Below are positions 26,013 to 52,594 of a stretch of DNA of 64,000 bases, one piece after another. This DNA comes from an uncultured Chloroflexia bacterium (GTDB lineage: Bacteria > Chloroflexota > Anaerolineae > Anaerolineales > Anaerolineaceae). How positions within the stretch are numbered: the first letter of the stretch is position 1; each line of letters begins with the position of its first letter. The DNA lies in the NCBI GenBank assembly GCA_963747315.1, contig CAVVEQ010000011.1, positions 53,723 to 117,722 of the forward strand, read 5' to 3'. The position numbers and the translations under genes were made by a program. The notes beneath the pieces were generated by a model. The model worked only from the letters and a program-made list of their open reading frames with translations. It had not been told where the DNA came from and made no database searches.

Positions 26013-26033
26013 TGGGAGGGGTACAATTCTAGA

Positions 26034-26074: not shown

Positions 26075-26269
26075 TCCTTCCCCGAATAATCTGCCGCGAA
26101 TTGTACGAATACTGCTAATATTCCTTTGGGGCGGGCATCCATTCACGCATTCGTGCACCCTTCGTAGACGGTTCTCCTGTAGTCTGGATCGGCGATCCGG
26201 CCTGCAATGCCGCTCAATTCCTGTGAACTGCGAAAACCATCTGCCCGATTTTTCCGTATACTAAATAAC

Positions 26270-32802: not shown

Positions 32803-32830
32803 TTGACACCCCCGCCGTCAGGGTTATAAT
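32803..32830 (+). promoter_or_regulatory. Consensus sigma-70 promoter of the DUF234 ATPase gene
   Basis: TTGACA (32803..32808), 16 nt, TATAAT (32825..32830). The conserved 41-nt leader begins at 32837. Confidence 0.6.
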
Positions 32831-32836
32831 CCAGGC

Positions 32837-32877
32837 AATCTACATACAAACTTTCTAAGAATTATCTTATGGAGATT
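32837..32877 (+). repeat. 41-nt leader sequence, copy B (5' UTR of the DUF234 ATPase gene)
   Basis: See copy A. It begins 7 nt after the -10 element and ends 5 nt before ATG 32883. Confidence 0.85.
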
Positions 32878-32882
32878 CCCTT

Positions 32883-34343
32883 ATGGACGCCTTCGTCGAC
32901 CGCCGTGCCGAGCTGGACGAGCTGAACCGCCTGCAGCGCCAGGAGCAAGCCCACTTCTTAGCCGTGTACGGGCGGCGGAGGGTTGGCAAAACCCGCCTGC
33001 TGCTCCACTGGGCGGAGCACAGCGGCTGTCCCTACCTGTACTGGGTGGCGCGCCGCGAGACTCCGGATGCCTGCCGGCAAAGCCTGGCGCGCGCCCTATA
33101 CGCCTGGCTCTACCCAGGGCTGGAATCTCCCCAGCCGCCGCGCTTCGACAGCTGGGAGACCCTCCTGCGGGAGGTCGCCACCCGCCTGGGCGAGCGCATC
33201 GCCGGGCAGCCGGTGATCCTGATCTTCGACGAGTTCCCTTACGCTGTGGAATCTGACCCCAGCCTGCCCTCCCACCTGCAGGCTGCCTGGGACCACTTCT
33301 TCAAGAGCCAGCGCATCATCCTGGCGCTCTCCGGCTCGCATATCGGCATGATGGTTGACCTGATGGAGTACGACGCCCCCCTGCACGGGCGCTTCACCGC
33401 CCAGTTCCCGGTCGACCCGCTGCCCTTCTCCGCCCTGCGGGCCTTCTTCCCCGGCTACACCGCCGCCGAGCGGGTGTCCACCTACGCCACCCTGGGCGGC
33501 ATCCCGGCTTACCTGGAGCGCTTCGACCCCGGGCAAAGCCTGGACGAGAACATTCGCGGCCACCTGCTGCGCCGCACGGGCATGTTCCGCAGCGAGCCGG
33601 CGGTGCTGATCAGCGACCTGGTGCGCGAGACGCGCATCTACGAGGCCATCCTGCGCACGGTTGCCGGCGGGGCGCACACCCCGGCGGAGATCGCCGGCCA
33701 GACCGGCCTGCTGCCCAACAACCTGCCGCCCTATCTCAAGCGCCTGCAAGAGCTGCGCCTGATCGAGCGCCGCGTGCCCGCCACCATCCCCCTCGACCAG
33801 GTGCACAGCACCACCCGCAGCCGCTACCACCTGCGGGATGCCTACCTGCGCTTCTACTTCCGCTTCATCGAGCCGCACCAATCGATCATCGAGCTGGGCA
33901 ACGTGGAGACGCTCTGGCAGCGCATCGCCGGGCAGTTCAATGCCTTCGTCGGCGCGACCGCCTTCGAAGACCTGTGCCGGGAATGGCTCCTGCGCCGCTC
34001 GCAGGCGGGCGAGCTGCCCTTCATCCCCGAGGTCATCGGCAGCCACTGGTCCGCCGGCGAGCAGGTGGACGTGCTGGCAATCAACTGGCGCCAGCGCGAG
34101 ATCTTGCTCGGCGAGTGCAAATGGAGCCGGGAGCCGCTGCAGCCCGCCGTGCTGTCCGGACTGGCGGCGAAAACCCTCGCCGTCGCCCCCGGACAGGGCT
34201 GGAAGGTGTACTACGCCCTGTTTGCCCGCTCCGGCTTCACCCGCGCCGCCCGCCAGGCGGCAGAGGACTACGGCGCCCTGCTGGTGGACCTGGAGAGACT
34301 GGACGAGGATTTGGCGGGAGAGATTAGAGATTCAAAGATTTAA
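32883..34343 (+). CDS. AAA+ ATPase of the archaeal-ATPase/DUF234 family
   Basis: FVDRRAELDEL, Walker A GRRRVGKT and Walker B LIFDEFPY. There is a winged-helix-like middle region and a C-terminal DUF234-like region (...GSHWSAGEQVDVLAINW...LGECKW). Confidence 0.85.
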   Translation: MDAFVDRRAELDELNRLQRQEQAHFLAVYGRRRVGKTRLLLHWAEHSGCPYLYWVARRETPDACRQSLARALYAWLYPGLESPQPPRFDSWETLLREVATRLGERIAGQPVILIFDEFPYAVESDPSLPSHLQAAWDHFFKSQRIILALSGSHIGMMVDLMEYDAPLHGRFTAQFPVDPLPFSALRAFFPGYTAAERVSTYATLGGIPAYLERFDPGQSLDENIRGHLLRRTGMFRSEPAVLISDLVRETRIYEAILRTVAGGAHTPAEIAGQTGLLPNNLPPYLKRLQELRLIERRVPATIPLDQVHSTTRSRYHLRDAYLRFYFRFIEPHQSIIELGNVETLWQRIAGQFNAFVGATAFEDLCREWLLRRSQAGELPFIPEVIGSHWSAGEQVDVLAINWRQREILLGECKWSREPLQPAVLSGLAAKTLAVAPGQGWKVYYALFARSGFTRAARQAAEDYGALLVDLERLDEDLAGEIRDSKI

Positions 34344-34535
34344 CCACGAAGGACACGAAGAAGTGCGAAGGAACACAAAGAAAGCCTTATTAAAAACCTT
34401 CGTGTTCTTCGGGGTTTCTTGGTGATCTGTTCTGAAAATAGCAACTTCGTGAACCTTCGTGTCTTGGAGCCTTCGTGGTGATATTTTCATCCTTCTGGGT
34501 GAATACTATTCATGACAACTTCGTGGTTCAAAACA
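34333..34535 (+). repeat. Hairpin-repeat family: one variant A unit (34333..34432) plus one variant B unit (34428..34535)
   Basis: aaagatttaaccacgaaggacacgaagaagtgcgaaggaacacaaagaaa...ttcgtgttcttcggggtttcttggtg, then the variant B sequence. Together they fill the gap between the ATPase stop and the msrQ stop. Confidence 0.8.
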
Positions 34536-35217: not shown

Positions 35218-35224
35218 GGTGCGC

Positions 35225-36160
35225 CTAATAGTCGCGGGCTAAATCCATGCCCGCATACAGCCCCGCCACCTGCTCGGCGTAGCCGTTGAACATCAGCGTA
35301 TCGCGCCGGCCCAGCTCGCCAATCCGGCGCTCGCTGCGCTGGCTCCAGCGCGGGTGATCCACCTGCGGGTTGACGTTGGCATAAAACCCGTATTCGTCCG
35401 GCGCGATCTGGCTCCACAGGGTGGCGGGCGGCTCGGCGGTCAGCTCGATCTTGACCACCGCCTTGATGGACTTGAAGCCGAATTTCCAGGGCACCACCAG
35501 GCGGATGCCGCCGCCGTTTTGCGCCGGCAACTCGCCGCCGTACAGGCCGGTCGCCAGCAGCGCCAGGTCATTCATGGCCTCGTCCAGGCGCAAGCCTTCC
35601 TGGTAGGGCCAGGGATAAAAACCCTGCCTTTGACCCGGCATTTCCTCCGGCCTGAGTACCGACTCAAAACGCACATACTTTGCATCGGATGTGGGTTCCA
35701 CTTCACTCAGCAGGCTGGCAAGCGGGAATCCCATCCAGGGAATCACCATGCTCCACGCCTCCACACAGCGCAGGCGGTAGATGCGCTCCTCAGGCGGGAA
35801 CTTCTTGACCAGCTCGTCCAGGCTGTACCTGCCGGGTATGCGCGCCAGCCCGGAGACTTCCACCTCCCAGGGCGAGGTCTGGAAATCCTTTGCCAGCCCG
35901 GCAACCCCTTCTTTATCGGTGGTGAACTCGTAATAGTTGTTATAGCCGGTGATATCTTCAAATGTGTTCGCCGGGTCGCCCAGCTCATCTGCCGGGCGGG
36001 GAGCCCCGCCTGGAGCAGGGGTCTCCACGGGTGAAGCGCCCTCACAGGCGGCAAGCAAAGCGCCTCCGGCAGCCAGCCCGGCAGCCTTCATGAACTGCCT
36101 GCGGGAAAGGTAGACCTGCTTGGGGGTAATTTCTGAGGATGGGATGGGGTTGCTTTTCAT
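35225..36160 (-). CDS. msrP: Protein-methionine-sulfoxide reductase catalytic subunit (molybdopterin, YedY-like)
   Basis: Tat signal (SRRQFMKAAGLAAGGALLAAC) and the oxidoreductase molybdopterin-binding fold (YRLRCVEAWSMVIPWMGFPL...RLVVPWKFGFKSIKAVVKIEL). Confidence 0.9.
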   Translation of the reverse strand: MKSNPIPSSEITPKQVYLSRRQFMKAAGLAAGGALLAACEGASPVETPAPGGAPRPADELGDPANTFEDITGYNNYYEFTTDKEGVAGLAKDFQTSPWEVEVSGLARIPGRYSLDELVKKFPPEERIYRLRCVEAWSMVIPWMGFPLASLLSEVEPTSDAKYVRFESVLRPEEMPGQRQGFYPWPYQEGLRLDEAMNDLALLATGLYGGELPAQNGGGIRLVVPWKFGFKSIKAVVKIELTAEPPATLWSQIAPDEYGFYANVNPQVDHPRWSQRSERRIGELGRRDTLMFNGYAEQVAGLYAGMDLARDY

Positions 36161-36175
36161 GATTGATCTCCTGAT

Positions 36176-36769
36176 TTACGGCACCGGCTCATCGAGCAGC
36201 GCCTGGATAGCCGCTTCGGTCTCCGCATAGCGCCCTTCGCCGATATGCGAGTAGCGCAGCCGTCCCTGCTTATCGATCAGGTACAGGGTGGGCCAGTAGC
36301 GGGTGTTGTAGAGACGCCAGGTCTTGCCATCGTTATCTTGCGCCACCGGGTAAGGTATGTTCAAATCGGCGACGGCTTGCTTGAGATTGTCTAAATCCTC
36401 TTCGTGCCTGAACTCGGGGTAGTGATTTCCGATGACCACCAGCCCGGAATCGGCGTACTGCTCGTGCCAGCCCCTCAACGAGGGGATCACATTGCGGCAG
36501 TTAATTCAACCGAAGGTCCACATATCAATCAGCACCACCTTGCCGCGCAGGTCCGCCAGGCGCAGCGGCTCAGGGGTGTTGATCCAGATTTCGTTGCCCA
36601 GCTCGGGCGCTTCGCCCAGGTCGGGGTAGGCTGCCGGCAGATCTTTCGCCGCCGGTATCTCTTTCGCCGCCGGCAGATCTTCCGCCGCCAGGGTGGAATT
36701 TGCAGCCTGAGAGCGGCAGCCCGCCAGGGCAAGCGCGCCGGTCACCAGCAGCCAGATTGCTAAACGCAT
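36176..36769 (-). CDS. DipZ-C-terminal/TlpA-like thioredoxin-fold redoxin lipoprotein with an in-frame TGA at the first active-site position (candidate selenocysteine, U-I-N-C)
   Basis: Track ORFs 36506..36769 and 36176..36490 are in one frame (594 nt). Lipobox LALAGC. The junction reads GKVVLIDMWTFG-TGA-INCRNVIPSL, compared with the family consensus GKVVLIDFW.YSCINC. The downstream sequence YWPTLYLIDKQGRLRYSHIGEGRY continues the same fold. Confidence 0.7.
36464..36490 (-). other. Candidate bacterial SECIS hairpin 3' of the in-frame UGA
   Basis: mRNA GUG-AU-CCCCUC-GUU-GAGGGG-CUG-GCAC: a 6-bp GC stem plus an outer GUG/CAC stem. The apical loop starts with GU about 27 nt after the UGA. Confidence 0.4.
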
Positions 36770-36847
36770 CGCTACACCTCCTGCTTGAGTTGTACCGATT
36801 ATAGAGGGTAGAGATTACAAAAGTCTTACACAGGGGAAAAGGAAGGA

Positions 36848-38080
36848 TTAACTCTTGGGCAGGGTAAAGGTGAACACGCTGCCCTGCCCGGGCGCGCTCT
36901 CGGCCCGGATGCTGCCCCGGTGGGCCTCGATGATGCCCCTGGCAATTGCCAACCCCAGCCCGGCGCCCCCGGCGGCGCGGTTGCGGGATTTATCCCCCCG
37001 GTAAAAGCGCTCGAAGACATGCGGTAAATCCTCCGGCAGGATGCCCTCGCCCGTATCCCTGACCGAGACGAAGACGCCCCCCGCCGCCAACCCGGCGCTC
37101 AGGGTGACATGACCTCCCGGCGGGGTGTGGTACAGGGCGTTGCTCACCAGGTTGTTGAGCGCCCGCCCCAGGCGCTGGACATCCATCACCAGCGGGTCGA
37201 TGCCCGGCGCGGCCGAGCCGCTCAGGATTACCTGCTTTTGAGCTGCCAGGCCGGAGAAGCTTTCCAGGGTGTCGGAGATCAGGTCGGAGAGGGAAGCCGG
37301 CTCCAGGTACAGGCTCAACCCACCCGCATCCAGCTGAGAGACTTGAAACAGGTCGTCCACCAGCAGGGAGAGGTTATCCACCTGCTTTTTGGCCTGCGCC
37401 AGGTATTGCTGCTGGGCTTGCGGGTCGGTGACCATGCCGTCTGCCAGGGCCTCCACCAGGACGCGGATCGAGGCCAGCGGGGTGCGCAGGTCGTGCCCGG
37501 CCCAGGCCACCAGGTCGCGGCGCAGGGCATCCAGCTCTTTCTGTTTCTGGTCAGCAGTCTGCAGGCGCTGCGCCATCTGGTTGAATGACTGCCCCAGGGC
37601 GGCGATCTCATCCCTGCCGGCGATGCTTGCCCGGGCAGACAGGTCCCCGCTTTCGATGGCGCGGGCGGCGTCTTCCAGCCGGGCGATGCGCTCGGTGAGC
37701 GCGCTGGCAAAGAAAGTGCCCAGCGCCACGGCGATGCCGCCCGCAAAAACCAGCAGGACCGTCGCCAGCATCAAGTCGTGCTGGCTGGCGAACATCAGCC
37801 GGGCTGTCAGCCAGACATTCAGGAAGGTTAGCAGGCTTGCCAGCACGTAAGTCCCGCCCAGCGTCCAACGCAGGGAAGGCGCCCACTCCAGCCAGCCCCA
37901 GCGGTAAGCCGCATACCCGGCCAGGATCGAGATGACCGCCGTCAATGCCAGGAACTGCGCCATCAGCCCCAGGTCGCCCATCGACGGGCGCATCAGCCAG
38001 TAGAAGATGCCCAGCGAGACGAGCAACACCAGGATGATACCGCTGGCAAGCAGCACGGTGCGGGAAGTGGATCTCTGCAT
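36848..38080 (-). CDS. Sensor histidine kinase (TM, HAMP, HisKA, HATPase_c)
   Basis: H-box AWAGHDLRTPLASI; N/G boxes NLVSNALYHTP and GGAGLGLAIARGIIEAHRGSI; HAMP-like segment RIARLEDAARAIESGDLS. Confidence 0.9.
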   Translation of the reverse strand: MQRSTSRTVLLASGIILVLLVSLGIFYWLMRPSMGDLGLMAQFLALTAVISILAGYAAYRWGWLEWAPSLRWTLGGTYVLASLLTFLNVWLTARLMFASQHDLMLATVLLVFAGGIAVALGTFFASALTERIARLEDAARAIESGDLSARASIAGRDEIAALGQSFNQMAQRLQTADQKQKELDALRRDLVAWAGHDLRTPLASIRVLVEALADGMVTDPQAQQQYLAQAKKQVDNLSLLVDDLFQVSQLDAGGLSLYLEPASLSDLISDTLESFSGLAAQKQVILSGSAAPGIDPLVMDVQRLGRALNNLVSNALYHTPPGGHVTLSAGLAAGGVFVSVRDTGEGILPEDLPHVFERFYRGDKSRNRAAGGAGLGLAIARGIIEAHRGSIRAESAPGQGSVFTFTLPKS

Positions 38081-38084
38081 GGCG

Positions 38085-38768
38085 CTACGGCTCGAACTTA
38101 TAGCCCACTCCCCACACGGTCACCAGGTGGCGGGGGGCAGCCGGGTCCGGCTCGATCTTCTCGCGCAGGCGGCGGATGTGCACGGTGACCGTGCCGGGGT
38201 CGATATAGTCCGACAGCCCCCAGATGCTCTCCAGGAGCTGGTCGCGGGTGAAAACCTGGCGCGGGTGCTGCGCCAGGTGGTAGATCAGGTCGAACTCCTT
38301 GGCGGTCAGAACGATCTCCTCGGCGCCCCGCGTGACCAGGCGCATCTGCGGGTTAATCCTCAGGTCGCCAAAATCCAGAGCGCGCTCTTCAATAGCCTGG
38401 GGAACGGGCCGCGTCCGGCGCAAAACAGCCCGCACCCGGCTGACCACCTCCTGCGGGCTGAAGGGCTTGACCACGTAATCGTCTGCGCCCAGCTCCAGCC
38501 CGGCGATGCGGTCGGCCTCCTCGCGGCGGGAGGTGAGCAGGATGATCGGCACATCGAAGCGGTCGCGCAGGTTGCGGGTGAGGGTGAAGCCGTCTATGCC
38601 GGGCAGCATCACGTCCAGGATGACCAGGTCCGGCAGCTGGCGCATCAGCGCCTCCTGGGCTGCCAGGCCATCGGCGTAGCAGGTCACCTGGTAACCGGCC
38701 CGCTTCAGGTACAGGCTGACCACCTCGCGAATATCCGGCTCATCCTCGACGATCACGATCTCGGTCAT
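38085..38768 (-). CDS. OmpR/PhoB-family response regulator
   Basis: Receiver domain (IVIVEDEPDI...DLVILDVMLPGIDG) plus a winged-helix output domain (LTAKEFDLIYHLAQHPRQVFTRDQLL...VWGVGYKF). Confidence 0.9.
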   Translation of the reverse strand: MTEIVIVEDEPDIREVVSLYLKRAGYQVTCYADGLAAQEALMRQLPDLVILDVMLPGIDGFTLTRNLRDRFDVPIILLTSRREEADRIAGLELGADDYVVKPFSPQEVVSRVRAVLRRTRPVPQAIEERALDFGDLRINPQMRLVTRGAEEIVLTAKEFDLIYHLAQHPRQVFTRDQLLESIWGLSDYIDPGTVTVHIRRLREKIEPDPAAPRHLVTVWGVGYKFEP

Positions 38769-39007
38769 GGGGTCTCCACATTGGGCTGGCGCACCGTGCC
38801 AGGCGAGCTGGGTGAATGACGGAGCGCTTTGAGCTTTGTCCAGGTTTTAGAACACAGCTTTCAACTACAACCAGGAGCCTGGACAAAGCAAGTATATACC
38901 GGAATTATTACACAAATCTTAAGCCTTGTTCATAGTCCCGTAAGGTTGCCTTCGGTTTCTCGTAAGAACTACTCGCTAAGATGATGAAAACCAGAAATAC
39001 GGAGGCT

Positions 39008-39662
39008 ATGATGATTAAGAAAACCCTGCTTGTCGTGTTCGTTTTCGCCCTGCTCGTCAGCGCCTGCTCGCCCGCAGCGGAGGCGATGGAGGAGAAACCG
39101 GCTGAGGCGATGATGGAGGAGAAGAACTCCTGACGCAATGATGGAAGAAACGCCCGAGACTATGATGGATGAGAAAACCCCCGAGGCGATGGTGGATGAA
39201 ATGATGGAAGCCCCCGCCTGGTTCGGCGCGGCGCTGACCAACGTGAGCAGCGGGGAGGACTTCACCATCAGCGACTTCAAGGGTAAAGTCGTCCTGGTGG
39301 AAACCCTGGCGATGTGGTGCCCGAGCTGCAAACGCCAGCAAATCCAGGTGAAAGCCCTGCACGAAGCGCTGGGTATGGACGAGGACTTGGTTTCGATCGG
39401 GCTGGATATCGACCCCAACGAGAACGCCGCCGACCTGAAAGCTTATACGGAAGCCAACAGCTTCGACTGGATTTACGCGGTGGCCCCGGCAGAGGTATCC
39501 CGCGAGATCGGCGCTCTGTACGGCGACCAGTTCCTGAACCCGACCTCCACGCCGATCCTGGTCATCGACCGCCACGGCGAGGTCCACCCCATGCCGTTCG
39601 GGGTCAAAAGCGCCGCAGACCTGCAAGCGTTCATCGAGCCTTTCCTCAAGGAAGGAATGTAG
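39008..39662 (+). CDS. TlpA/ResA-like thiol-disulfide oxidoreductase lipoprotein (CPSC); the signal-peptide exon is separated by one frameshift
   Basis: ATG 39008 follows GGAGG and encodes MMIKKTLLVVFVFALLVSAC...EAMMEEK, then a stop at 39131. The frame of track ORF 39138..39662 continues ...TPDAMMEETPE... if one A near 39125 is removed. Active site is LAMWCPSCKRQ. Confidence 0.75.
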
Positions 39663-39690
39663 GCCCAACCGGAGGGAAAGCGAGCCGACT

Positions 39691-40359
39691 ATGGAAACCG
39701 TCCTGACTTCGATCAGCCTGGGCCTGCTGGCCAGCGCCAGCCCGTGCATCCTGCCGCTGTATCCAGGCTACCTGGCCTACCTGAGCGGGGCGAGCCAGAC
39801 ATCCCGCGGCAGCAAGCGCTATTTCCTGGGCTTCTTTGTGCTGGCAGGCGTGCTGAGCATGATGCTGGCGCTGGGCCTGCTGATCGCACTGGTATCGGTT
39901 TCGGTGGGGCGGGCGCTCTCGGTGGTCATCCCTCTGGCAGACCTGCTAATCATCTCCCTGGGGGTCCTGCTCCTGCTGGACAAGAACCCGTTCAAGGCCT
40001 TGCCGCAGATCGAAGCGCCCGCCTTGAGCAGCCCGTACGTCAACGCCTATCTGTACGGCTTGCTGTACGGACCGATCGCCCTGCCCTGCTCTGGCCCGCT
40101 GGTGGTGAGCATCTTTGCCATCTCGCTAACCGCTGCAGAAGCCCTGAGCAAGCTGAATATCTTCCTGTGGTTCGGGGTGGGGTTCGGGCTGCCGCTGCTG
40201 GCGCTCTCGCTAATCTCCGGCGCCATGCAGCGCGATATCACCCGCTGGCTGGCGATCAACGCCCGCCTGGTCAACATCCTGGGCGGGCTGCTGCTGGTGG
40301 GGATTGGGCTCTACGATTTCTGGGCCAACTGGGAGCTGATCGGCCTGCTGCTGGGGTAA
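39691..40359 (+). CDS. ccdA: Cytochrome c biogenesis / thiol-disulfide electron transfer membrane protein CcdA (DsbD-like TM domain)
   Basis: Conserved Cys in TM1 (ASASPCILPLYPGYLAYL) and TM4 (GPIALPCSGPL). Six TM helices. Confidence 0.85.
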   Translation: METVLTSISLGLLASASPCILPLYPGYLAYLSGASQTSRGSKRYFLGFFVLAGVLSMMLALGLLIALVSVSVGRALSVVIPLADLLIISLGVLLLLDKNPFKALPQIEAPALSSPYVNAYLYGLLYGPIALPCSGPLVVSIFAISLTAAEALSKLNIFLWFGVGFGLPLLALSLISGAMQRDITRWLAINARLVNILGGLLLVGIGLYDFWANWELIGLLLG

Positions 40360-40490
40360 AGGATTGAACCGCAAAGAGGTAAAGATTTAACCACCAAGAA
40401 CACCAAGAAGTGCGAAGGAACACAAAGAAGGCTTTATTAAATCTCTTCGTGATCTTCGGGTTTTCTTGGTGGTCTTTGTGGTTCAATATA
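40358..40490 (+). repeat. Hairpin-repeat family, variant A copy
   Basis: aaagatttaaccaccaagaacaccaagaagtgcgaaggaacacaaagaag...cttcgtgatcttcgggttttcttggtggtctttgtggttcaata. Confidence 0.85.
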
Positions 40491-40504
40491 TCCTAGCAAG
40501 AGGC

Positions 40505-40617
40505 AGAGATTGAACCACCAAGAACACGAAGAAGTTCAAAAGAACACAAAGAAAACCTTATAAACTCCTTCGTGTTCTTCAGGTTTTCTTCGTGTTCTTC
40601 GTGGTTCAAGGTTTTAT
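40505..40617 (+). repeat. Hairpin-repeat family, variant A copy
   Basis: agattgaaccaccaagaacacgaagaagttcaaaagaacacaaagaaaa...cttcgtgttcttcaggttttcttcgtgttcttcgtggttcaagg. Confidence 0.85.
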
Positions 40618-40623
40618 TTACCG

Positions 40624-40995
40624 TTATTCCTGGATGATTTCCGCCTGGAAGCGGCGCCGGTGCAGGTCTTCGCGCACCGGGGCGAAGAAATCGGTCAGCT
40701 CGGCGGGCACATCCCCATCGTTGCGCTCGGAATGGGGCGCGCCGGGCGGGATGTAAAAGAACTCGCCGGCGCTCACCGGGTACTCTTCGCCGTTGATGGT
40801 GAAGATGATCGTCCCTGCCAGGACGATCCCGCTCTGCTCATTGGGGTGGACGTGCACCGGTGCGTTGGCGCCCGGCTCCCAGCGCGTCCACATCACGGTC
40901 ATGTTCTGCCCTTCGATCAGCATGCGCGAGAACACGCCCTTGTGCTTTTCGATCGGCCATTCTTCTACATTGGCTGGGTTAATCACGTGGTTCAT
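40624..40995 (-). CDS. Cupin-domain protein
   Basis: Cupin motifs GANAPVHVHPNEQSG and GEFFYIPPGAPHS. Confidence 0.85.
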   Translation of the reverse strand: MNHVINPANVEEWPIEKHKGVFSRMLIEGQNMTVMWTRWEPGANAPVHVHPNEQSGIVLAGTIIFTINGEEYPVSAGEFFYIPPGAPHSERNDGDVPAELTDFFAPVREDLHRRRFQAEIIQE

Positions 40996-41049
40996 GGTTT
41001 AATCTCCGTGAGGGGGTTGGGTGAGGTCTGGACTCATTTTAGCATAGGA

Positions 41050-41158
41050 TTAAAGATTGAACCGCCAAGGGCGCGAAGAAGCGAAGAAGCACAAAGAAAA
41101 CCAAAAATATATCTTGGTGTTCTTTGGGTTCTCTTGGTGGTCTTCGTAGTTCAATGTT
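41050..41158 (+). repeat. Hairpin-repeat family, variant A copy (near-twin of 45012..45124)
   Basis: ttaaagattgaaccgccaagggcgcgaagaagcgaagaagcacaaagaaaa...ttctttgggttctcttggtggtcttcgtagttcaatgtttt. The termini are inverted (GATTGAAC...GTTCAAT). Confidence 0.9.
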
Positions 41159-41180
41159 TTACATTTTTACGGGGTGGGAG

Positions 41181-41225
41181 TAAAGATTGAACCGCCAAGG
41201 GCGCGAAGGGGCGCGAATAATCACG
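41181..41225 (+). repeat. Hairpin-repeat family, truncated left arm only
   Basis: taaagattgaaccgccaagggcgcgaaggggcgcgaataatcacgc. Confidence 0.7.
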
Positions 41226-41239
41226 CAGAATATCGCTGC

Positions 41240-42847
41240 TTATGGGACAATGTGAAATATTACCGCAAAACCATCGCGATAAACTTCTTCCAAGCGCAAA
41301 TCGGCTTCAGCCTTGCGGATAAAAGCAGTATGGTTCAGGTCAGAGAGGATATAGCGGGCAGCAAATTTACCCTCGATCTGCTGGGATAGTTGATCCACCT
41401 GGCCACGGGTTATCGCTCGCCAATCCTCGTATAGCCCCGCGTTATACAATTGCATATAGGTAGGATCTAACCCGATTAGATATGTGTTGTGTGTATTGTA
41501 GAAAAATAAACGCGGGAAGTCATCCCAATCTGTCTGGAAAATGCGCTCGCCTTGGGCAGTGTTCCGAATTAACCAGGCAGAAGCATCGGCGTACGTCTCA
41601 TAGGGTTTGGATCCTTGAATGCTTTTGATAGTTGCAGGCAAGGTGTGGAATACGCCCAGGCTCACCAGGATCAACACCGTACCGGCGATCCCCAAATATT
41701 GCCAGCGGGACGCAAGGACTTGCTTCAGTTTATCCGGCGCAGCAACCAGGGTTTCCTCTAACCAACCGCCAGGCTGCAACAGGGATTGAAATGCCAGGCT
41801 GCCAAATATCAAGGCAAAAGGAGCAAGATATTCAATAAAATGGCGTGATCTCATGGTCATCCAACTGAAAAGGAACACCATTAACAATGCCACCGCCGTA
41901 GCTGATTTCATACGCCGCCCTGTAATCCCCAGGGTAAGAAAGCCTAAACCCAGCAGCGCTAGTACCGGCCAGGAATTCTCCAATAACTGAGCAGTGGTAT
42001 AGGGATACCATTCGCCACCCACCCCCACCGAAGTGGCTTCTCCTACTTTTGGCAGGATATGCCGGATCGTAAAAATAATGTTATGCGGGAAATATGGATG
42101 AATGACCAAACCGGCTATGATCCCGATCATTGAGTAGACCGCTGGTTGAAATGCCAGGCGCCTGTCAACCAGCCATACTGCCAATGCATAAACCACTGCC
42201 ATAATTGGTAAAAGGGGAAAAGCATTATACATCCAGACATAAATAAAACCGACCAGGACAAATAGTTTTGTTCTTCCTTGTAGCATCCAATGCAAACTCA
42301 ACGCCAGGATGGCCAGAGATAACGACGGGGACCGTGTAAGGCTCATCCTGGACAAAAATGCCTCCGAGATAACCAGCAATCCCAAAGCCCACAAGGCAGG
42401 ATAGCGCACCTTCTGCCCACGGAGTAGCCACCAAATACATAAAAAGGCAGCGCTGGCAAAGATAATGCTCGCCCATTTTGCCCCTAATCGTAAATCGCCA
42501 AAGGTAAACGGGATCAGTGCAACATGAAAAAGGAAATGATGATTACTATACTCGCTCTCATTTAAGATGGTTAACGGCAACCAGGGATAGTCTGGGCGCA
42601 AACCCTCCTGACGCATGATCTGAGCCATTTTTATATGGTAATACCCATCGTTGCCGGCCAAATCGGGGGTCGAAAATTGGATCACCGACATACCCAAGCT
42701 AAAAACAAAAAACAGTAAGATTGCTTGCAAAACCAGCTTGATGGCAGGTTGAGAAACCAGGACGTTGCGAATATTCTTAATAACCGAAAAAAGGCGACTC
42801 TGGACTGCTGCGTTGAACGATTTCTCGTAGGGAAGTTCGGGATTCAT
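41240..42847 (-). CDS. Large polytopic membrane protein, GT-C-like (AT-richer cassette)
   Basis: 535 aa with about 13 TM helices. First loop is [18 protein letters not shown]. The C-terminal soluble domain ends ...[13 protein letters not shown]. It lies downstream of the sigma/anti-sigma pair on the same strand. Confidence 0.7.
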
Positions 42848-42941
42848 ATCTCAATTATTCCACAAGATGGCTGCAGGCAGTATCCGAGCTCCCTGCAGCC
42901 ATCACTGCAACCGAGATGGTCTACATTAGCTAATATTTTGA

Positions 42942-44333
42942 CTAGTCGTCATCATCATCATCGTCGTCACCATCATCATTGTCGTTGTCGTTGGTGTTCC
43001 AGTTGTCGTTCAGGTTGTCGTTCCAGTTGTCATTGGTGTTCCAGTTGTCATTCAGATTGTCATTCAGATTGTCATTCAGATTGTCATTCAGATTGTCATT
43101 CAGATTGTCATTCAGATTGTCATTCAGATTGTCATTCAGATTGTCATTCAGGTTATCATTCAGGTTATCGTTCAGGTTATCATTCAGGTTATCGTTCAGG
43201 TTGTCATTCAGGTTGTCATTCAGGTTGTCATTCAGGTTATCGTTCAGGTTATCGTTCAGGTTATCGTTCAGGTTATCGTTCAGGTTATCGTTCAGGTTAT
43301 CATTCAGGTTATCGTTCAGGTTATCGTTCAGGTTATCGTTCAGGTTATCGTTCAGGTTATCGTTCAGGTTATCGTTCAGGTTATCGTTTATGTCATCAGT
43401 AGAGGCGAGTTCAACTTCACGCATAACCAGGTTTCCATTGGCATCTTGCAAGGCATGTACCTTGACCAGGCTACCCACCGTGATCTGTCCTTTGATCTCC
43501 GAGGTGGGGACCAGAACAAAAGTGCGCCCGCCAACCACCCAAGAGTCTGCATTGATCGCTTCAACGGTGCCAACGTACTCGATCTCACCGTCGTCAAAGC
43601 TACCGGCAGTATTTGAAACCAGGATCGCACGCTTTATTTCGTCCTGAGCAGTTTCAGGTAAGGCACTCATCATTCCGCTCAAGGTCTCCGTGTAGCGCTT
43701 AAGAAGTACTGCCACCCGAGAAGCCAGTTCCTGGGCGCCGGTCGGGTCGCCAGCAGCCACGGTTTCTAGCTCTGCGATCGCTCTCTGAACATATTGTTCG
43801 TATTCCTGAACCGCCTGGGCAATATCTACGTAGCGCCCGCTGGCAATCAACCGGGCAATCTCGTCCAGGCGCCGTTCAGCAAAAGCCAGATTGAGTTGGG
43901 CTTTTTGGGCTGCATCACGTGCCAGGGTAACACGAGTTTGTTCCATACCCGTCTTTACACTATAGAGTACATCGCCGGGTAAAGCCGATTGGGATGCATA
44001 AGCTGTCATTCCTGCCCCGCCAAACAAAAAGGTAACTAATATTACCAAAACTGCTGCTAAAGTAAGTACAGTCCGAAACCCAGGGGTAGCCATGTTCCAT
44101 TTCTCCTTCCATTGCTGGTAAAAAGGTACCTTGCCCGCTGTACGGGTATTGTATGAGAAACCTTGCTCCTTGACTATCTCGTCAACCTCAGCAACAAAAT
44201 TGGCCAAGCCTCTGGCTGCGGCATCAGGATCACGGGGGGGTACCGAGCGTAGCTGTTGATACCTGCGCTCCAGTTCTGGGTCTATGGGTTGTTCTGAAAG
44301 AGGGTTATCAGCCACGGGTATTACTCCTCGCAC
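42942..44333 (-). CDS. Anti-sigma-factor-like single-pass membrane protein (DUF5667/DUF5666-like ectodomain) with a C-terminal (NDNL)n repeat and poly-Asp tail
   Basis: It overlaps the sigma gene by 13 nt. TM helix [21 protein letters not shown]; [21 protein letters not shown] (DUF5667-like); beta-barrel-like [21 protein letters not shown]...; then about 28 x NDNL and [11 protein letters not shown]. Confidence 0.75.
42978..43392. repeat. 12-bp tandem repeat array (~28-30 units) encoding (NDNL)n on the minus strand
   Basis: Plus-strand units ttgtcattcaga / ttatcattcagg / ttatcgttcagg / ttgtcattcagg occur in homogeneous sub-blocks. Confidence 0.95.
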
Positions 44334-44857
44334 ACTGTCATAGACTGGCGCAATGTTACCAGAGCACGGTATTGCAATGCGCGTGTAGCATCCACGGTCT
44401 TTCCCAGTAATTCAGCAACCTGATCATGTGACCAGTCTTCCATGAAACGAAGATCAATCACAATCTGTTGCTCGTATGGCAGTTGGAGCAAAGCATTTCT
44501 GAGTTGCTCAGTCTCCTGCCTGTTAAGAACTCCATTTTCAACATCGCTGTCTGGGTCAGGCTGTGAGTCTGCTTCCAGGGTTATATTGGAGGTCTGCTTG
44601 CGGTAAAAATCAACCGCCCAATTGTGTGCCATCCGGTAAAGGTATGCCCGCAAATTGCCTTCGGGGGTCCGTCTGCTCCGGATCAATTGTAAAAACCTTG
44701 AAAACGTTTCTGCCACACATTCCTCCGCCAGATACTGGTCGCCTAGCAGCCGGTAGGCATACCGGTACATACCTGGGCTGTTGTCCTTGTAGACCCTGAT
44801 CAGAGCTTGTTTATCCAATTGCTGCGCCTCGGTCGACAGCACTGCTTCCTTGCACAC
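44321..44857 (-). CDS. ECF-type RNA polymerase sigma-70 family factor
   Basis: Region 2 (YRYAYRLLGDQYLAEECVAETFSRFL...YLYRMAHNWAVDFYRK) and region 4 (LPYEQQIVIDLRFMEDWSHDQVAELLGKTVDATRALQYRALVTLR). Confidence 0.9.
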   Translation of the reverse strand: MCKEAVLSTEAQQLDKQALIRVYKDNSPGMYRYAYRLLGDQYLAEECVAETFSRFLQLIRSRRTPEGNLRAYLYRMAHNWAVDFYRKQTSNITLEADSQPDPDSDVENGVLNRQETEQLRNALLQLPYEQQIVIDLRFMEDWSHDQVAELLGKTVDATRALQYRALVTLRQSMTVCEE

Positions 44858-44969
44858 GGTTTCTCACCCTTTATAACGACGAGAGAAGAAAAACATGACG
44901 ATTAATGTTGGGATTACTCATTATAAACGCATCTAAGCTGCTCAAGCTGCTGACGAAGCTGGGTTCAAA

Positions 44970-45006
44970 TCAGGTGCAACGCACTTCTCAAGTGCATTGC
45001 ACCTGA
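44970..45006. other. 17-bp-stem hairpin abutting repeat copy 45012..45124, upstream of the sigma gene
   Basis: TCAGGTGCAACGCACTT-CTC-AAGTGCATTGCACCTGA, with one mismatch. Confidence 0.6.
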
Positions 45007-45011
45007 ACAAA

Positions 45012-45124
45012 TTAAAGATTGAACCGCCAAGGACACGAAGAAGCGAAGAAGCACAAAGAAAATACTCTTAATTACTTCGTGCTCTTTGGGTTTCCTTGGT
45101 GGTCTTCGCGGTTCAATGTTTAAA
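45012..45124 (+). repeat. Hairpin-repeat family, variant A copy (near-twin of 41050..41158, same orientation)
   Basis: The first 51 nt differ from 41050.. at only 2 positions (ggGcGcg vs ggAcAcg). The right arm is ...ctctttgggtttccttggtggtcttcgcggttcaatgttta. Confidence 0.9.
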
Positions 45125-45192
45125 TCCCTATCCAGAACAAATATTCTACCCCACATCGCTATCCAGGTAATCTTAAAGTTTCCAAATCCCGA

Positions 45193-45221
45193 TTGACATC
45201 TGCTATAATCGCGTGTAAACT
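45193..45221 (+). promoter_or_regulatory. Candidate sigma-70 promoter for the ExeA-like ATPase gene
   Basis: TTGACA (45193..45198), 17 nt, TAAACT (45216..45221). A TATAAT also lies at 45204..45209. Confidence 0.4.
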
Positions 45222-45279
45222 TTAACGAGCTTGCCGAAAGACCTTGTAACCATATCTAAACCTGCAAAAGAGACCTTCT

Positions 45280-46137
45280 ATGGCTACATTGCGCGACCCA
45301 CAACGACGGATCATCTTGCGCGAGCTGGGCTTCTCTGAAGAGCCCTTCTCTCGCTCGGCGGACCCGCGCTTCCTGTACCTCTCTGCCCAGCACGGCGACG
45401 TGCTCGACCGCATCCAGGAGGTCGTCGAGGAGCGCCGCGGCCTGGCAGTGGTGGAGGGCGGCTTCGGGGTGGGCAAGAGCACCATCGCCCGCCGCCTGGA
45501 ATCGATCTACCGCACCTACCCGGCGGATTTCCAGGTGGTCTTCGTCCACACCGCGGCCTACGAATCGGAGTATGCCGCCCTGCTGGACGTGAGCTACGCC
45601 CTCAACCTGGACCGCCGCAAAGGAATGACAATGCAGTGGCGCGAGTTCGAGAGCTTCCTGGTGGACCAGAAAGAGCAGGGCCGCAATGTGGTCGTCATCC
45701 TGGACGATGCCCAGCTCATGGTTCCGGATGCCCTGTCTCTGGTGCACCATATCTACAACTTCGACATCTCGCAAAAGCTGGCCCAGGTGATCCTCTTCGG
45801 GCAGCCCGAGCTGCAGCGCATCTTCAACCAGCGCACCGAGGTGCTCAGCCGGGTGGATGCCTGGTTCCGCCTCAACCCACTCTCCCTGGAAGACACCCTG
45901 GAGCTGATCCGCTTCCGCTGCGCGGTTGCCGGGCGCAAAGACGCCCTGCTGACCCAGAGCGCCTTCCTGGAGGTATGGAAAGCCACCCGGGGCATCCCGC
46001 GCGAGATCGTGGCAGTCTGCTCCAAGGTGATCAACGAGATGGGCTACCAGAAGAAAGCCATGGCAGATAACGCCGTGGTGCACGCCGCCCTGCTCGATTC
46101 GCAGCCGCCGCGCGCCGAGGCCTTCGAGCTGGCTTGA
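45280..46137 (+). CDS. ExeA/TniB-like AAA ATPase
   Basis: LGFSEEPFSRSADPRFLYLSAQHGDVL (ExeA-type N-terminus), Walker A GGFGVGKST, Walker B VVVILDDAQ, and sensor region ILFGQPEL. Confidence 0.8.
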   Translation: MATLRDPQRRIILRELGFSEEPFSRSADPRFLYLSAQHGDVLDRIQEVVEERRGLAVVEGGFGVGKSTIARRLESIYRTYPADFQVVFVHTAAYESEYAALLDVSYALNLDRRKGMTMQWREFESFLVDQKEQGRNVVVILDDAQLMVPDALSLVHHIYNFDISQKLAQVILFGQPELQRIFNQRTEVLSRVDAWFRLNPLSLEDTLELIRFRCAVAGRKDALLTQSAFLEVWKATRGIPREIVAVCSKVINEMGYQKKAMADNAVVHAALLDSQPPRAEAFELA

Positions 46138-46229
46138 GAGTCTGTCATGTGTCGGTTTCCGCCCATGCCCGCTCTCGCCCCGCAGACAACAAAACGGTTT
46201 GCAGTTTTTGACTTCAACCTCAAAAAAAG

Positions 46230-46238
46230 TTATCCACA
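46230..46238 (+). promoter_or_regulatory. Perfect consensus DnaA box TTATCCACA
   Basis: An exact 9-mer at 46230..46238. It is followed immediately by a 12-bp perfect hairpin and an AT-rich stretch. Confidence 0.35.
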
Positions 46239-46239
46239 G

Positions 46240-46270
46240 GCTTTAACCCCCATATCTGGGGGGTTAAAGC
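46240..46270. other. Perfect 12-bp-stem hairpin
   Basis: GCTTTAACCCCC-atatctg-GGGGGTTAAAGC. Confidence 0.8.
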
Positions 46271-46331
46271 ACCCGGACACCCGTTTTTTGGGATAAGACT
46301 ATTTTTATGGACATAAAAATAATGGAATTAT

Positions 46332-46703
46332 ATGGCTAAGAAAATACGAGATCCCGGCGACACCGATAAGACCGACCTGTACCCCTGGCTGCGTTTGCTG
46401 GAGCTGGAGGTGCAGCCTCCCAAGCACGCCACGCCGCGGCGGGGCAAAGGCCGCCCGCCAAACCCCTTCCCGCGCCGCCCGGTGCACGTCACCCTGACCG
46501 AAGACGAGCTGGACGCCCTCGACGAGTTGGCGCGCAGCCTTTCGGCGCATTTCAACAGCCGCATGCACCGCGGCCACGTGATCGCTTTCCTGACCTTCTA
46601 CTTCCACAGCCGCCTGCAAAAAGGCGATGTGATCGACCTGCCGGAAGAAATCATCTCGCTGAGCGATCTGGCACACTATCTTGACCTGGAAAAAGGAGTA
46701 TAA
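46332..46703 (+). CDS. Small protein with a ribbon-helix-helix-like segment
   Basis: Basic N-terminus (RRGKGRPPNPFPRR), then VHVTLTEDELDALDELARSL, which resembles the RHH/CopG beta-strand plus helix. 123 aa. Confidence 0.5.
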   Translation: MAKKIRDPGDTDKTDLYPWLRLLELEVQPPKHATPRRGKGRPPNPFPRRPVHVTLTEDELDALDELARSLSAHFNSRMHRGHVIAFLTFYFHSRLQKGDVIDLPEEIISLSDLAHYLDLEKGV

Positions 46704-47036
46704 TAGATTAGAACTTTTGTTCTAACAAAGGACCCATTAAATGACAGACTTTATCAAAAGATCACCCCCAGATTAAAAACCAGCCAGCCCGGCATGGGCA
46801 AATGCGGGCTGGGGCAGAGACGCTTGCGAAGCGAAGTTTTTTCGAAAACTGCTGACCCCTGCATTGTATCATGTTTCTGAGAGCCAGGCAAGCTGAGTGA
46901 AAGCCTGCCGCACCGGGTTGGGCAGCCCGGAACGGCCACCGCTTATCAGCGGCCTCAATGAGCCGCCGCTCAACGGAGCACCGCTTGAAAAGCGGTCTGG
47001 AAGCCTGATACCCCTCCGCACCTGCCGCACACCGGT

Positions 47037-48215
47037 TTGGCAGCTATCGCGGATTCTATGGATTTCACAACCACGCCAAAAGTCAGAGCCGTCTTAGAGA
47101 CGGTGCGCAGCCTGGATGCAGATGAAACGCGCCAGTTCCACTCTGCACTGCTCAACCCAAAGCGCGCCGGGCTGGAGACCTCCCCCGAGGAGCACCCCGA
47201 CCCCTGGCAGGTGTTCACCCTGCTGGACGCCTACCTGGAGCGCCCGCCGGTCGAGTACGTTGCCCAGGGGCTATTCGCCCTGCCCTCGCTGAACATCGTC
47301 TACGGCGCGCCGGGCACGCTGAAGAGCTTCATCCTGGCCGACCTGGCGGTATGCGCCGCGGCCGGCATGGACTGGCTGCCCCCGGCAGCCTGGATCAACG
47401 GCAACCAGAGCCGCGGCTACCCCACCCGCCAGTGCCCAACTATGTGGCTGGACTTCGACAACGGGCGCCGGCGCACCCACGACCGCTTCGGCGCGCTGGG
47501 CCGCTCCCGCAACCTGCCCGCAGACACCCCCCTGTACTATTACTCCATGCCCTCCCCCTGGCTCAACGCCGGCGATAAAAACTCCATTGGCAACCTGCTG
47601 CTGCGCATCCAGGATAAAGGCATCCAGCTGGTGATGGTGGATAACCTGGGCGTGGTCAGCGGCGACGCCGACGAGAACAGCGGCGATATGGTGGCGGTGA
47701 TGTCCGAGTTCCGCCAGCTTGCCGAGGAAACCGGCGCGGCAGTGGTGCTGGTGCACCACCAGCGCAAAGGCACCGGCTACACCGGGCGGGCCGGCGACAG
47801 CCTGCGCGGTCATTCCAGCATCGAGGCCTCCCTGGACCTGGCGCTGCTCGTCGAGCGCGAGGAGCTGTCCGATACGGTGACGATCAAAGCCACCAAGGTG
47901 CGCGGCGAGGACGTGCGCCCCTTCTCTGCCGTCTTCACCTACGATCCGGGCCCCAACGGGGAGCTGGAGACCGCCCAGTTCTACGGCATCGCTGCCGAGG
48001 ACAACCGCAGCGGGCAGGCGATCGAGCGCGAGATCATGGTCGCCCTGCTGGGCTCCAGCCTGAACAAGACCGACCTGACCAAGGCGGTCAAGGAGGTGCT
48101 GAAAGACGTGGGCATCAACCGCATCCGCGACTGGATCGACCGCCTGTCTGCCACCGGCAAGCTGGTCGTCTCTAACGGGAAGAACAACACCGAGAAGATC
48201 TACAGCCGCCTGTAA
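47037..48215 (+). CDS. RecA-fold ATPase of the AAA_25/RepA-like family (mobile-element replicative helicase-like)
   Basis: Walker A YGAPGTLKS, Walker B LVMVDNLGVV, then AVVLVHHQRKG and RGHSSIEASLD (KaiC/RepA-like sensor motifs). The listed start is TTG; ATG 47058 is an alternative. Confidence 0.8.
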   Translation: MAAIADSMDFTTTPKVRAVLETVRSLDADETRQFHSALLNPKRAGLETSPEEHPDPWQVFTLLDAYLERPPVEYVAQGLFALPSLNIVYGAPGTLKSFILADLAVCAAAGMDWLPPAAWINGNQSRGYPTRQCPTMWLDFDNGRRRTHDRFGALGRSRNLPADTPLYYYSMPSPWLNAGDKNSIGNLLLRIQDKGIQLVMVDNLGVVSGDADENSGDMVAVMSEFRQLAEETGAAVVLVHHQRKGTGYTGRAGDSLRGHSSIEASLDLALLVEREELSDTVTIKATKVRGEDVRPFSAVFTYDPGPNGELETAQFYGIAAEDNRSGQAIEREIMVALLGSSLNKTDLTKAVKEVLKDVGINRIRDWIDRLSATGKLVVSNGKNNTEKIYSRL

Positions 48216-48221
48216 GGGCAT

Positions 48222-48400
48222 ATTCACCACAGAGACACGGAGATCACAGAGAAAGTCTTTTATAAAACGCCGTAGGGCGGGATTTATCCCGCCTGCCTCG
48301 CCCAGAGCGGAACGGCAGTCGAAGGACGATTCACCGCAGAGAGCGCAGAGAAGGGCATTTGAACCGCAAAGGAATAAAGATAGCAAAGGGCTTTTGTCTA
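48222..48400 (+). repeat. Related word-repeat element (CACAGAGA / GCAGAGA / GCAAAGG words) containing a GTAGGGCGGG hairpin
   Basis: attcaccacagagacacggagatcacagagaaa ... gattcaccgcagagagcgcagagaagg ... tttgaaccgcaaaggaataaagatagcaaaggg. Confidence 0.55.
48271..48293. repeat. REP-like hairpin CGTAGGGCGGGAT-tt-ATCCCGCC
   Basis: It has the same CGTAGGGCGGG arm as 17510..17542. Confidence 0.65.
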
Positions 48401-48409
48401 CCACCCGCA

Positions 48410-48915
48410 CATCGCACTTACCTGACACCTGACACCGGATCACCCCCTCACCCATGACCCCCTCACTCACACCCACTTACACCCCGGGCATAATCGGCGG
48501 ATACCGCCTGCGGGCGCTCGCCGGGGGTATGCCGCGTTTGCAGAATGCGATCCAGACTCAGATACTGTCATTGCTCGGCAATGGGCCGGCATCCCATACC
48601 GCTGGATGTGCATCCAGCCCCACTTACACCACCTACACCGGCTTACACTGCCGCCAGCGCCGTGCCAATCGGACTCCAAGAATCGCCAAACGCCACTTAT
48701 TCCACTCACGGGCCTCCGGGCGCTCTTATCCCCCGGCAATGCTCTCTTTATTTCCCACCCAGATGCGAAAACAAACCGGATTCAGCATGTTTTTCCCCAC
48801 TCCTCACAATTCGTACCGGTCATTTACTCATTTACAGCCATTTACGGGCACTTACAACCTGCCGCCCCCAGCCACTCACGCACTTACCCCCCTTTAAGGG
48901 GGTAAGTGCGCGTGG
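48410..48915. repeat. Non-coding iteron-like array: at least 12 copies of C(A/T)(C/T)T(T/C)AC, mostly CACTTAC, ending in a perfect hairpin
   Basis: Copies lie near 48415, 48473, 48620, 48640, 48693, 48703, 48821, 48830, 48839, 48849, 48873 and 48881, with an inverted copy at 48902. Terminal palindrome is CGCACTTACCCCC-CTTTAA-GGGGGTAAGTGCG (about 48879..48910). Confidence 0.6.
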
Positions 48916-49007
48916 GGTTATCACCGGTCAATGCCAGGCATTGTTTGCTAAAGCGGTCTGCCTCAATCTTTGGGCAGCACCCATCTTACGCCCCAGGGAG
49001 CAGTCTT

Positions 49008-49865: not shown

Positions 49866-49891
49866 TGATTTATTGCTGACAGGAGTTTTGT

Positions 49892-52587: not shown

Positions 52588-52594
52588 GGTGGGC

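Follow-up and report, generated by a model that had tools for sequence, protein, structure and literature searches.

Hairpin repeats at variable gene spacers of an uncultured Anaerolineaceae genome are gene-less relatives of GxxExxY elements

Short palindromic repeats that lie between bacterial genes have been described in several forms. Bacterial miniature inverted-repeat transposable elements (MITEs), such as Correia/NEMIS of Neisseria, RUP of Streptococcus and Nezha of cyanobacteria, are small, non-coding, multi-copy intergenic sequences with inverted termini that fold into hairpins and sometimes supply the last codons of a gene. Repetitive extragenic palindromes (REP), of 20-40 nt with a 5' GTAG, and the related REPINs are associated with RAYT, a Y1 transposase that can stand as a single small gene flanked by the same repeats; copies without a gene presumably require it in trans, and the repeats vanish where it is absent. 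The attC sites of integrons are imperfect palindromes, bounded by R boxes of the form RYYYAAC and GTTRRRY (in full R''/L''-L'/R', with an unpaired central spacer and extrahelical bases), that lie in one orientation and separate cassettes varying among relatives, and arrays of such sites without a linked integrase are known as CALIN. Here we analyse a family of hairpins of about 110 nt in a 64,000-nt stretch of DNA (the window; positions 53,723 to 117,722 of contig CAVVEQ010000011.1, here C11) from the metagenome-assembled genome (MAG) of an uncultured Chloroflexota bacterium of the family Anaerolineaceae (GCA_963747315.1, here G000; 2.9 Mb, 86.6% complete). At two adjacent spacers close relatives hold different contents between the same hairpins, and the hairpins are inverted-repeat elements that have no gene; full-length copies of the same element carry a gene of the GxxExxY family (TIGR04256, PD-(D/E)XK-like fold) between the same arms.

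The first-pass annotation of the window had described a family of hairpins of about 110 bp, assembled from repeated words between inverted termini. Repeat detection, which aligned six left and four right arms in register, and an nhmmer profile built from four hairpin copies recovered the family and refined its coordinates (copies a to f, Table 1), the profile scoring the copies at E values of 1e-31 to 2.5e-23. Full copies measure 107-111 nt and are devoid of ORFs, and all six copies share one orientation, giving their best profile score on the + strand. The word structure and termini proved to be as described: elements begin with AAAGATTGAAC and end in GTTCAAT, and each arm has a fixed terminus (AAAGATTGAACC ... 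GGTTCAATnTTT, also given as AAAGATTGAACC / GGTTCAAT), behind which stand four or five words of 8-10 nt of the type C-N-AAG-R-A, in G000 mostly CACGAAG, CACCAAG and CACAAAG. More broadly, the elements can be defined by tandem C-N-AAG words of 7-10 nt behind the terminus GATTGAACC. The copies fall into two subfamilies, one comprising c, d and e, whose left arms are mutually 80-96% identical, and the other a and f (92% identical) together with b (84% to each). Copies c and e, which had been called nearly identical and equally oriented, differ at 2 of 52 left-arm positions, and the first 29 nt of d are identical to those of c. The first bases of f form the last two codons and the stop codon of a DUF234 ATPase gene, so the suggestion that the repeat at 34334 supplies the end of that gene also stands.

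When folded with DNA energies against 200 shuffles per copy, the four full copies formed long imperfect hairpins (-22 to -28 kcal/mol, z -4.3 to -7.3), and for these copies none of the 200 shuffles folded as well; copy d did not fold in the same test. The fold prediction proposed at first pass thus returned strong hairpins for every full copy. The stems, some 45 bp long, are AT-moderate and contain mismatches. Aligning 13 copies showed that the AAG/CTT and CAC/GTG triplets pair while the variable N of each word is unpaired.

Comparison with relatives bears directly on what lies between the hairpins. The spacer between a Cupin_2 gene and an ATPase gene (here AAA22, after its Pfam AAA_22 domain) was found in three states. 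In L312, a 5-kb short-read metagenome contig that is 88-92% identical to the window, cupin and AAA22 are separated by a single hairpin, representing the empty site; this hairpin consists of a left terminus, a nested hairpin of CACGAAT words and a right arm with the flank GTTTTACATCCCTATCCAG. In the MAG Anaerolineae PPR_0249 (G041), the nearest relative of the hairpin region, mini hairpins and a TPR-like gene come after hairpin c (contig L285), and upstream of AAA22 lies a GxxExxY gene flanked by CACGAAT hairpins together with the right arm of e only. In G000 the order is c, d, a 3.85-kb block that encodes an ECF sigma factor, an anti-sigma-like protein and a 535-residue membrane protein, and e. 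Homology between G000 and PPR_0249 extends as far as the right terminus of c, breaks off there and restarts at the right arm of e (from 45071). The two copies that border the block resemble each other (96% in the left and 85% in the right arm) more than either resembles its positional ortholog (c 88%/67%; e 79%). The flank GTTTTACAT after copy c is also the flank of the single hairpin of L312, and in PPR_0249 both hairpin copies are followed by AAATCCCWWTCCAG. The flanks shared after the hairpins imply that in each lineage a unit of hairpin and flank was duplicated so as to surround the insert.

The sigma block itself behaves as an insert bounded by c/d and e, in agreement with the first-pass description of an AT-richer block flanked by these copies: the GC content of 41.2-45.0 kb is 0.41-0.55 compared with about 0.57-0.67 on either side, the block is absent from four congeners (which with G000 form the five-genome comparison set of the genus) and from PPR_0249, and L312 provides the empty site. 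The gene for the 535-residue protein is single-copy in G000 and widespread in Anaerolineales (387 loci), and is absent from the four congeners and from the whole PPR_0249 assembly. Its closest homologue (L187) has 72-80% amino-acid identity within the same three-gene order; at this locus and in a further genome (G043) the homologues of the block have no flanking hairpins and lie in ordinary gene contexts.

The neighbouring spacer, between DsbD and the cupin gene, likewise exists in three states, with one hairpin (PPR_0249, L284 and L285), with two tandem hairpins (G000), or with two hairpins that flank a gene for a 190-residue membrane protein (L312). The copies thus flank regions that vary among relatives, as the first-pass annotation had expected, with three states at each spacer. 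The cupin gene had been viewed as a cassette; it is indeed flanked by hairpins, but it is no recent insertion: at least five lineages retain cupin together with a hairpin at its 3' end, among them L316 and L317, which lack DsbD and keep a hairpin of the family at this place. Four homology breakpoints fall in a hairpin or at its edge. At 34.5 kb homology to PPR_0249 starts inside the right arm of f, the breakpoint at 41.15 kb is the end of c, that at 45.07 kb is the junction of loop and right arm of e, and that at 48.92 kb follows a CACTTAC-word hairpin, after which a 3.67-kb segment absent from PPR_0249 begins. The proposal of repeat-mediated cassette shuffling therefore holds with respect to the differing contents of the two spacers; from the same observations we infer that the hairpins act as recombination hot spots, and they may cause exchange rather than only mark its boundaries.

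The nature of the hairpins is revealed by loci in which a gene lies between equivalent arms. PPR_0249 contains nine GxxExxY genes and at least 13 distinct hairpins on about nine contigs, and in one locus of this genome (L278) a GxxExxY gene lies between the arms TTAACCACGAAGTCACAAAGGCACGAAGG and CTTCGTGCCTTTGTGCCTTCGTGGTTAA, which belong to the word family of the G000 copies. In other phyla a GxxExxY ORF is located exactly between AAGATTGAACCGCCAAG-word arms and their inverse (L129 and L088), and a truncated GxxExxY gene (L034) is bracketed by the same terminus AAGATTGAACCGCCAAG. Further GxxExxY genes in PPR_0249 and G043 lie between arms of CACAGAG, CGAAT or GAACCGCAAAG words, the arm types seen at 48223-48391 and 40358 of the window, and at the site orthologous to e in PPR_0249 (L141) a GxxExxY gene (TIGR04256, 121.9 bits) adjoins the conserved right arm. 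GxxExxY (PDDEXK_3) is a very large protein family without known function; its function was listed as 'Unknown', with 'multiple transfers', in a 2012 survey of PD-(D/E)XK proteins (PMC3424549). A literature search found no paper linking GxxExxY or PDDEXK_3 to repeats, and within that literature the element type appears to be undescribed. A second gene-repeat architecture is also seen in PPR_0249 (L141:190-1065, contig C227), where the GxxExxY gene is not inside one hairpin and is instead flanked by three CACGAAT-word hairpins of the same orientation; L312 has a gene-less CACGAAT hairpin at this position. Across 40 relatives the number of first-look hairpin candidates correlated weakly with GxxExxY gene number (rho 0.20, p 0.21), and this relationship was not used.

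The genome-wide census that the first-pass annotation had suggested confined the family in G000 to C11, within 11 kb. The nhmmer profile had no hit elsewhere in the MAG, a word-density scan of the MAG returned the same four places only, and generic palindrome screens of the MAG detected no further word-built hairpin, the palindromes elsewhere being short GC stems with T-runs. No hairpin copies were found in the four congeners, and neither PF13366 nor TIGR04256 had a match in these genomes or in G000, the latter being 86.6% complete. These data suggest that the hairpins of G000 are orphan relics unable to spread there. In public sequences the 17-mer AAGATTGAACCRCCAAG occurs at more than 120 loci in many phyla, with identical termini in more than ten, and 65 of 127 matches carry two or more further words, compared with a chance expectation of about 1%. 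Whole hairpins were found by profile in Anaerolineae, Acidobacteriota, Sorangium, Gemmatimonadaceae and others. Rfam gave nothing at gathering thresholds, and at relaxed thresholds only plant and animal miRNA-precursor models, which represent generic hairpin noise. Two candidate associations were discarded. The single IMG/VR match that might have indicated phage carriage is a chance match within a coding region, without words, and the Y1_Tnp (PF01797) genes considered as RAYT partners (three in G000, one in PPR_0249) have no hairpin within the surrounding 3-kb loci.

Table 1. Hairpin copies, related repeats and genes in the window
Feature	Position	Strand	Remarks
Hairpin copy f	34334..34535	+	Split by nested 95-nt element in right arm; subfamily with a
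Nested 95-nt element (family D5)	34426..34520	+	Within right arm of f; second copy 25919-26013, 89% identical
Solo left-terminus fragment AAAGGATTGAACCGCAAAGAGGT, 23 nt	40358..40380	+	Directly after DsbD stop codon, ahead of copy a; kept in PPR_0249
Hairpin copy a	40381..40490	+	Repeat detection, profile, fold -22.7 kcal/mol, z -5.7
Hairpin copy b	40505..40614	+	Tandem with a; repeat detection, profile, fold z -7.3
Cupin_2 gene	40624..40995	-	Flanked by b and c
Hairpin copy c	41052..41158	+	Left direct repeat of sigma block; repeat detection, profile, fold
Copy d, left arm only	41182..41234	+	Ends 5 nt from stop codon of 535-aa gene (41240)
Variable three-gene block	41240..44857	-	Lineage-specific insert
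535-aa membrane protein	41240-42847	-	No Pfam or NCBIfam family
DUF5667/DUF5666 anti-sigma-like protein, (NDNL)n tail	42942-44333	-	Domain matches
ECF sigma factor	44321-44857	-	Block gene nearest e
Hairpin copy e	45014..45124	+	Right direct repeat of sigma block; repeat detection, profile, fold
Row of left-arm modules (CACAGAG, CGCAGAG, GAACCGCAAAG) and mini hairpin GGGCGGGATTTATCCCGCC	48223..48391	+	Other word families
CACTTAC-word hairpin	48872..48917	+	Segment absent from PPR_0249 (48919-52594, 3.67 kb) starts right after

The three further places that the first-pass annotation had listed as related copies differ in status. The copy at 34333-34535 is a true member, interrupted by a 95-nt element; that at 25884-26012 is a copy of this nested element, D5, and not of the hairpin; and the row at 48222-48400 is kin to the hairpin family at the superfamily level only. 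In PPR_0249 the end of the right arm at the f site, CTGGTGATCTTCGTGGTTTAAAAAC, is uninterrupted, indicating that D5 entered f by precise insertion without target duplication; several D5-like copies occur in that genome. Other small repeats accompany these elements. The mini hairpin GGGCGGGATT(C)TATCCCGCC at 48275-48293, which recurs beside word hairpins at the end of contig C25 of PPR_0249, at L312:1560-1590 and in the flanks of L022, seems to represent a small repeat family of its own. Another hairpin family, CAGGTGCAAsGCACTT ... AAGTGCmTTGCACCTG, has two copies, at 25795-25831 and 44966-45003; each lies upstream of a word hairpin or D5 element, at a distance of a few tens of bases. A 63-nt repeat (26017-26079 and 32820-32882; 86% identical) precedes a GT2 glycosyltransferase gene and the DUF234 ATPase gene, ends at or near the start codon and resembles a shared leader, the second copy being preceded by a promoter-like site, TTGACA-17-TATAAT.

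Within the sigma block, a tandem array with a 12-nt period (42943-43446, - strand) specifies some 37 NDNL repeats together with an acidic tail, which form the C-terminus of the anti-sigma-like protein. The 535-residue protein has no match in Pfam or NCBIfam, and its first-pass designation as 'GT-C-like' was not confirmed.

The hairpins lie within a part of C11 that departs from the rest of the contig. Three regions of C11 are genus-like, with 79-95% identity to the congeners: its first 20 kb and the segments at 14.0-21.5 kb and 53.9-61.9 kb of the window. The intervening stretch of about 32 kb (window ~21.5-53.8 kb) shows no synteny with the genus, holds all hairpin copies and matches PPR_0249 at 34519-41151 (85%), 45072-48918 (85%) and 52595-53733 (80%). 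By comparison, a core segment of G000 is about 65% identical to PPR_0249 versus 72-78% to the congeners. Tetranucleotide composition is least typical in the island segments, which are short. On the simplest reading, the hairpins were probably imported as passengers of DNA acquired horizontally from a lineage like PPR_0249. The end of the island contains a module comprising an AAA_22 ATPase, a 123-residue protein, an AAA_25 ATPase and a primase-like protein with Zn-ribbon/Toprim domains (45280-48215 and 52433-53752). The first three of its genes are kept in at least five other Anaerolineae genomes with differing upstream neighbours, and a mobile element may have this AAA_22/AAA_25/primase module as its core for replication or maintenance. 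The 3.67-kb segment at 48919-52594, which is absent from PPR_0249, has three ORFs, one with a weak GH17 match; in PPR_0249 the primase gene begins directly after the CACTTAC hairpin. An exact-protein look-up of cupin and AAA22 returned no record.

Taken as a whole, the data lead us to favour, as the probable though far from certain explanation, the view that the hairpins are shells of GxxExxY elements that were imported as orphans and act as hot spots of exchange. Several observations weigh against it. In the 13-copy alignment 21 of 25 stem pairs display no compensatory change, most being invariant, and with covariation nearly absent selection for the fold is not separable from plain sequence conservation. 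Neither target-site duplications nor a consistent crossover point were seen, and the mechanism is thus not demonstrated. Any repeat between genes will of necessity flank genes and, on a rough estimate, the hairpins occupy 40-50% of the intergenic space in this stretch, which makes the four breakpoints only moderately unlikely by chance; one rearrangement in L312, from the ferric reductase side to mid-DsbD, has no word hairpin at its breakpoint. The sequences used for comparison come from MAGs and metagenomes, and such contigs can be joined wrongly at repeats. With respect to import, C11 could be chimeric, given that its genus-like flanks are on different contigs in the congeners, that the right one of these flanks is paralogous to contig C9, and that contig C1 (14.3 kb) duplicates part of C11 (C11:45279-55783, from just left of the window to within its start) at 97% and then 86% identity. 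The C1 duplication indicates a strain mixture or a recent duplication in the bin.

This last group of observations raises the question of whether the states themselves (L312, the contig ends of PPR_0249 and perhaps the C11 island) arose from mis-joins or breaks at repeats. Contigs C25 and C227 of PPR_0249 end or start at or near hairpins, L312 is a short-read contig, and the 97% identity of C1 would fit the mixing of strains in the bin. However, L312 contains unique sequence within its single hairpin, a nested CACGAAT element, and has a further gene separating a from b, neither of which is obtainable by collapsing the G000 arrangement; L285, identical to C25 across their overlap, independently extends it 1.2 kb past hairpin c into the TPR gene; the 535-residue gene is missing from the entire PPR_0249 assembly and not from that junction alone; and C11 would need two chimeric joins, both returning to the same genus. 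Assembly artefact is therefore an improbable source of the differences. We give as little weight to the idea that the hairpins are host-selected bidirectional terminators, or mRNA-stabilizing structures, near which the structural variation is coincidental. Their strong folds, the location of most copies directly after stop codons and of a and b between convergent genes, and the AAAG at their start and the T-rich runs after many copies speak for this idea, but e lies between divergent gene starts and c upstream of cupin, a simple consensus terminator scan does not report the hairpins, and the rest of the genome, from which the family is absent, uses the short GC stems with T-runs. In addition, orthologous copies have diverged at least as rapidly as the genes beside them (67-88% vs 85%).

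A slightly stronger case, which we nevertheless judge unlikely, can be made for ordinary MITEs inserted independently by a conventional transposase in trans, the flanking of gene blocks then being a by-product of intergenic insertion. Terminal inverted repeats, small size, lack of coding capacity and multiple dispersed copies in PPR_0249 are typical of MITEs, and both the variable number of hairpins at one spacer among relatives and the precise nesting of D5 inside f fit such insertions. Target-site duplications, however, were not seen at the flanks of 17 copies in G000 and PPR_0249, or at the D5 insertion; the only gene found between such arms is GxxExxY, with no known transposase domain there; and the Y1 transposase genes of both genomes are without hairpins nearby. 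The flank that c and e share beyond the element argues for duplication of a target segment and not for two separate insertions. The first-pass term MITE-like is accordingly not upheld in its strict sense, as neither target-site duplication nor a transposase partner accompanies the repeats. Least credible, and in our view very improbable, is an integron-like array in which the hairpins are attC-type sites of a CALIN and cassettes are exchanged by an integron integrase. Its appeal derives from imperfect palindromes of 100-110 nt in one orientation with contents that differ among relatives, from termini (ATTTAAC / ATTGAAC ... GTTCAAT) close to the attC R boxes, and from the retention of the 3' hairpin by cupin in several contexts. 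Against these stand the absence of an integrase in G000 and PPR_0249, where the best TIGR02249 score, 37 bits against a cut-off of 265, is at the level of control genomes; predicted stems that run on from the terminus without an unpaired central 5-nt spacer and with periodic single mismatches at the word N; breakpoints at three different hairpin positions; and a block of three genes that possesses a promoter region of its own and is oriented away from e. GxxExxY genes are also bracketed by these termini, which occur in more than ten phyla.

If the hairpins are exchange hot spots derived from GxxExxY elements, the favoured route for entry of the sigma block would be a single, Campbell-type crossover between hairpin copies. 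A block flanked by direct hairpin copies would loop out with one copy and re-enter the empty site, generating the repeats c and e. Alternatively, an extruded palindrome might break, with repair then restoring the palindrome at both ends. By either route the hairpin, together with some 10 nt from its right flank, would be duplicated to give c and e. The GxxExxY nuclease could possibly make such breaks, although it could not do so in G000, which lacks the gene. Extending this to a general scheme, in which the nuclease cuts the hairpin or cruciform and repair captures or swaps a neighbouring block and duplicates the hairpin, would amount to an integron-like mechanism without an integrase in many bacterial phyla; we put this forward as a speculation that is unlikely to prove correct. 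The system nevertheless offers a natural experiment, with a lineage rich in both hairpins and gene, a genus that has neither save for imported hairpins, and an allelic series at two spacers in which gene blocks are exchanged precisely at the hairpins, which makes two questions testable: whether the nuclease acts on the hairpins, and whether palindromes drive operon-scale gene turnover in uncultured Chloroflexota. Such repeats also matter for annotation, as they give rise to spurious ORFs, change the ends of genes and interrupt short-read assemblies.

In comparison with the known systems, the hairpins share with bacterial MITEs their small size, non-coding and multi-copy intergenic nature, inverted termini and hairpin fold, together with the occasional contribution of last codons to a gene. 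They differ from them in having no target-site duplication and arms of tandem words rather than unique sequence, and in that their gene-bearing relative carries the PD-(D/E)XK-like GxxExxY protein and no transposase, with a terminus distributed over more than ten phyla. From attC sites and CALIN arrays, which they resemble in length, imperfect palindromy, single orientation, terminal boxes and the separation of cassettes that vary among relatives, they are set apart by the lack of IntI, of an unpaired central spacer in the predicted stems and of a single crossover point, by a 'cassette' that is a three-gene operon, and by the GxxExxY link. Their organization also parallels that of REP/REPIN-RAYT systems, in that palindromic intergenic repeats flank a single small gene, gene-less copies presumably depend on that gene in trans, and the repeats vanish where the gene is absent. 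In contrast to REP sequences, the hairpins described here are three to four times longer, at about 110 nt, are built from words and are without GTAG, and in place of a Y1 transposase their partner gene is GxxExxY.

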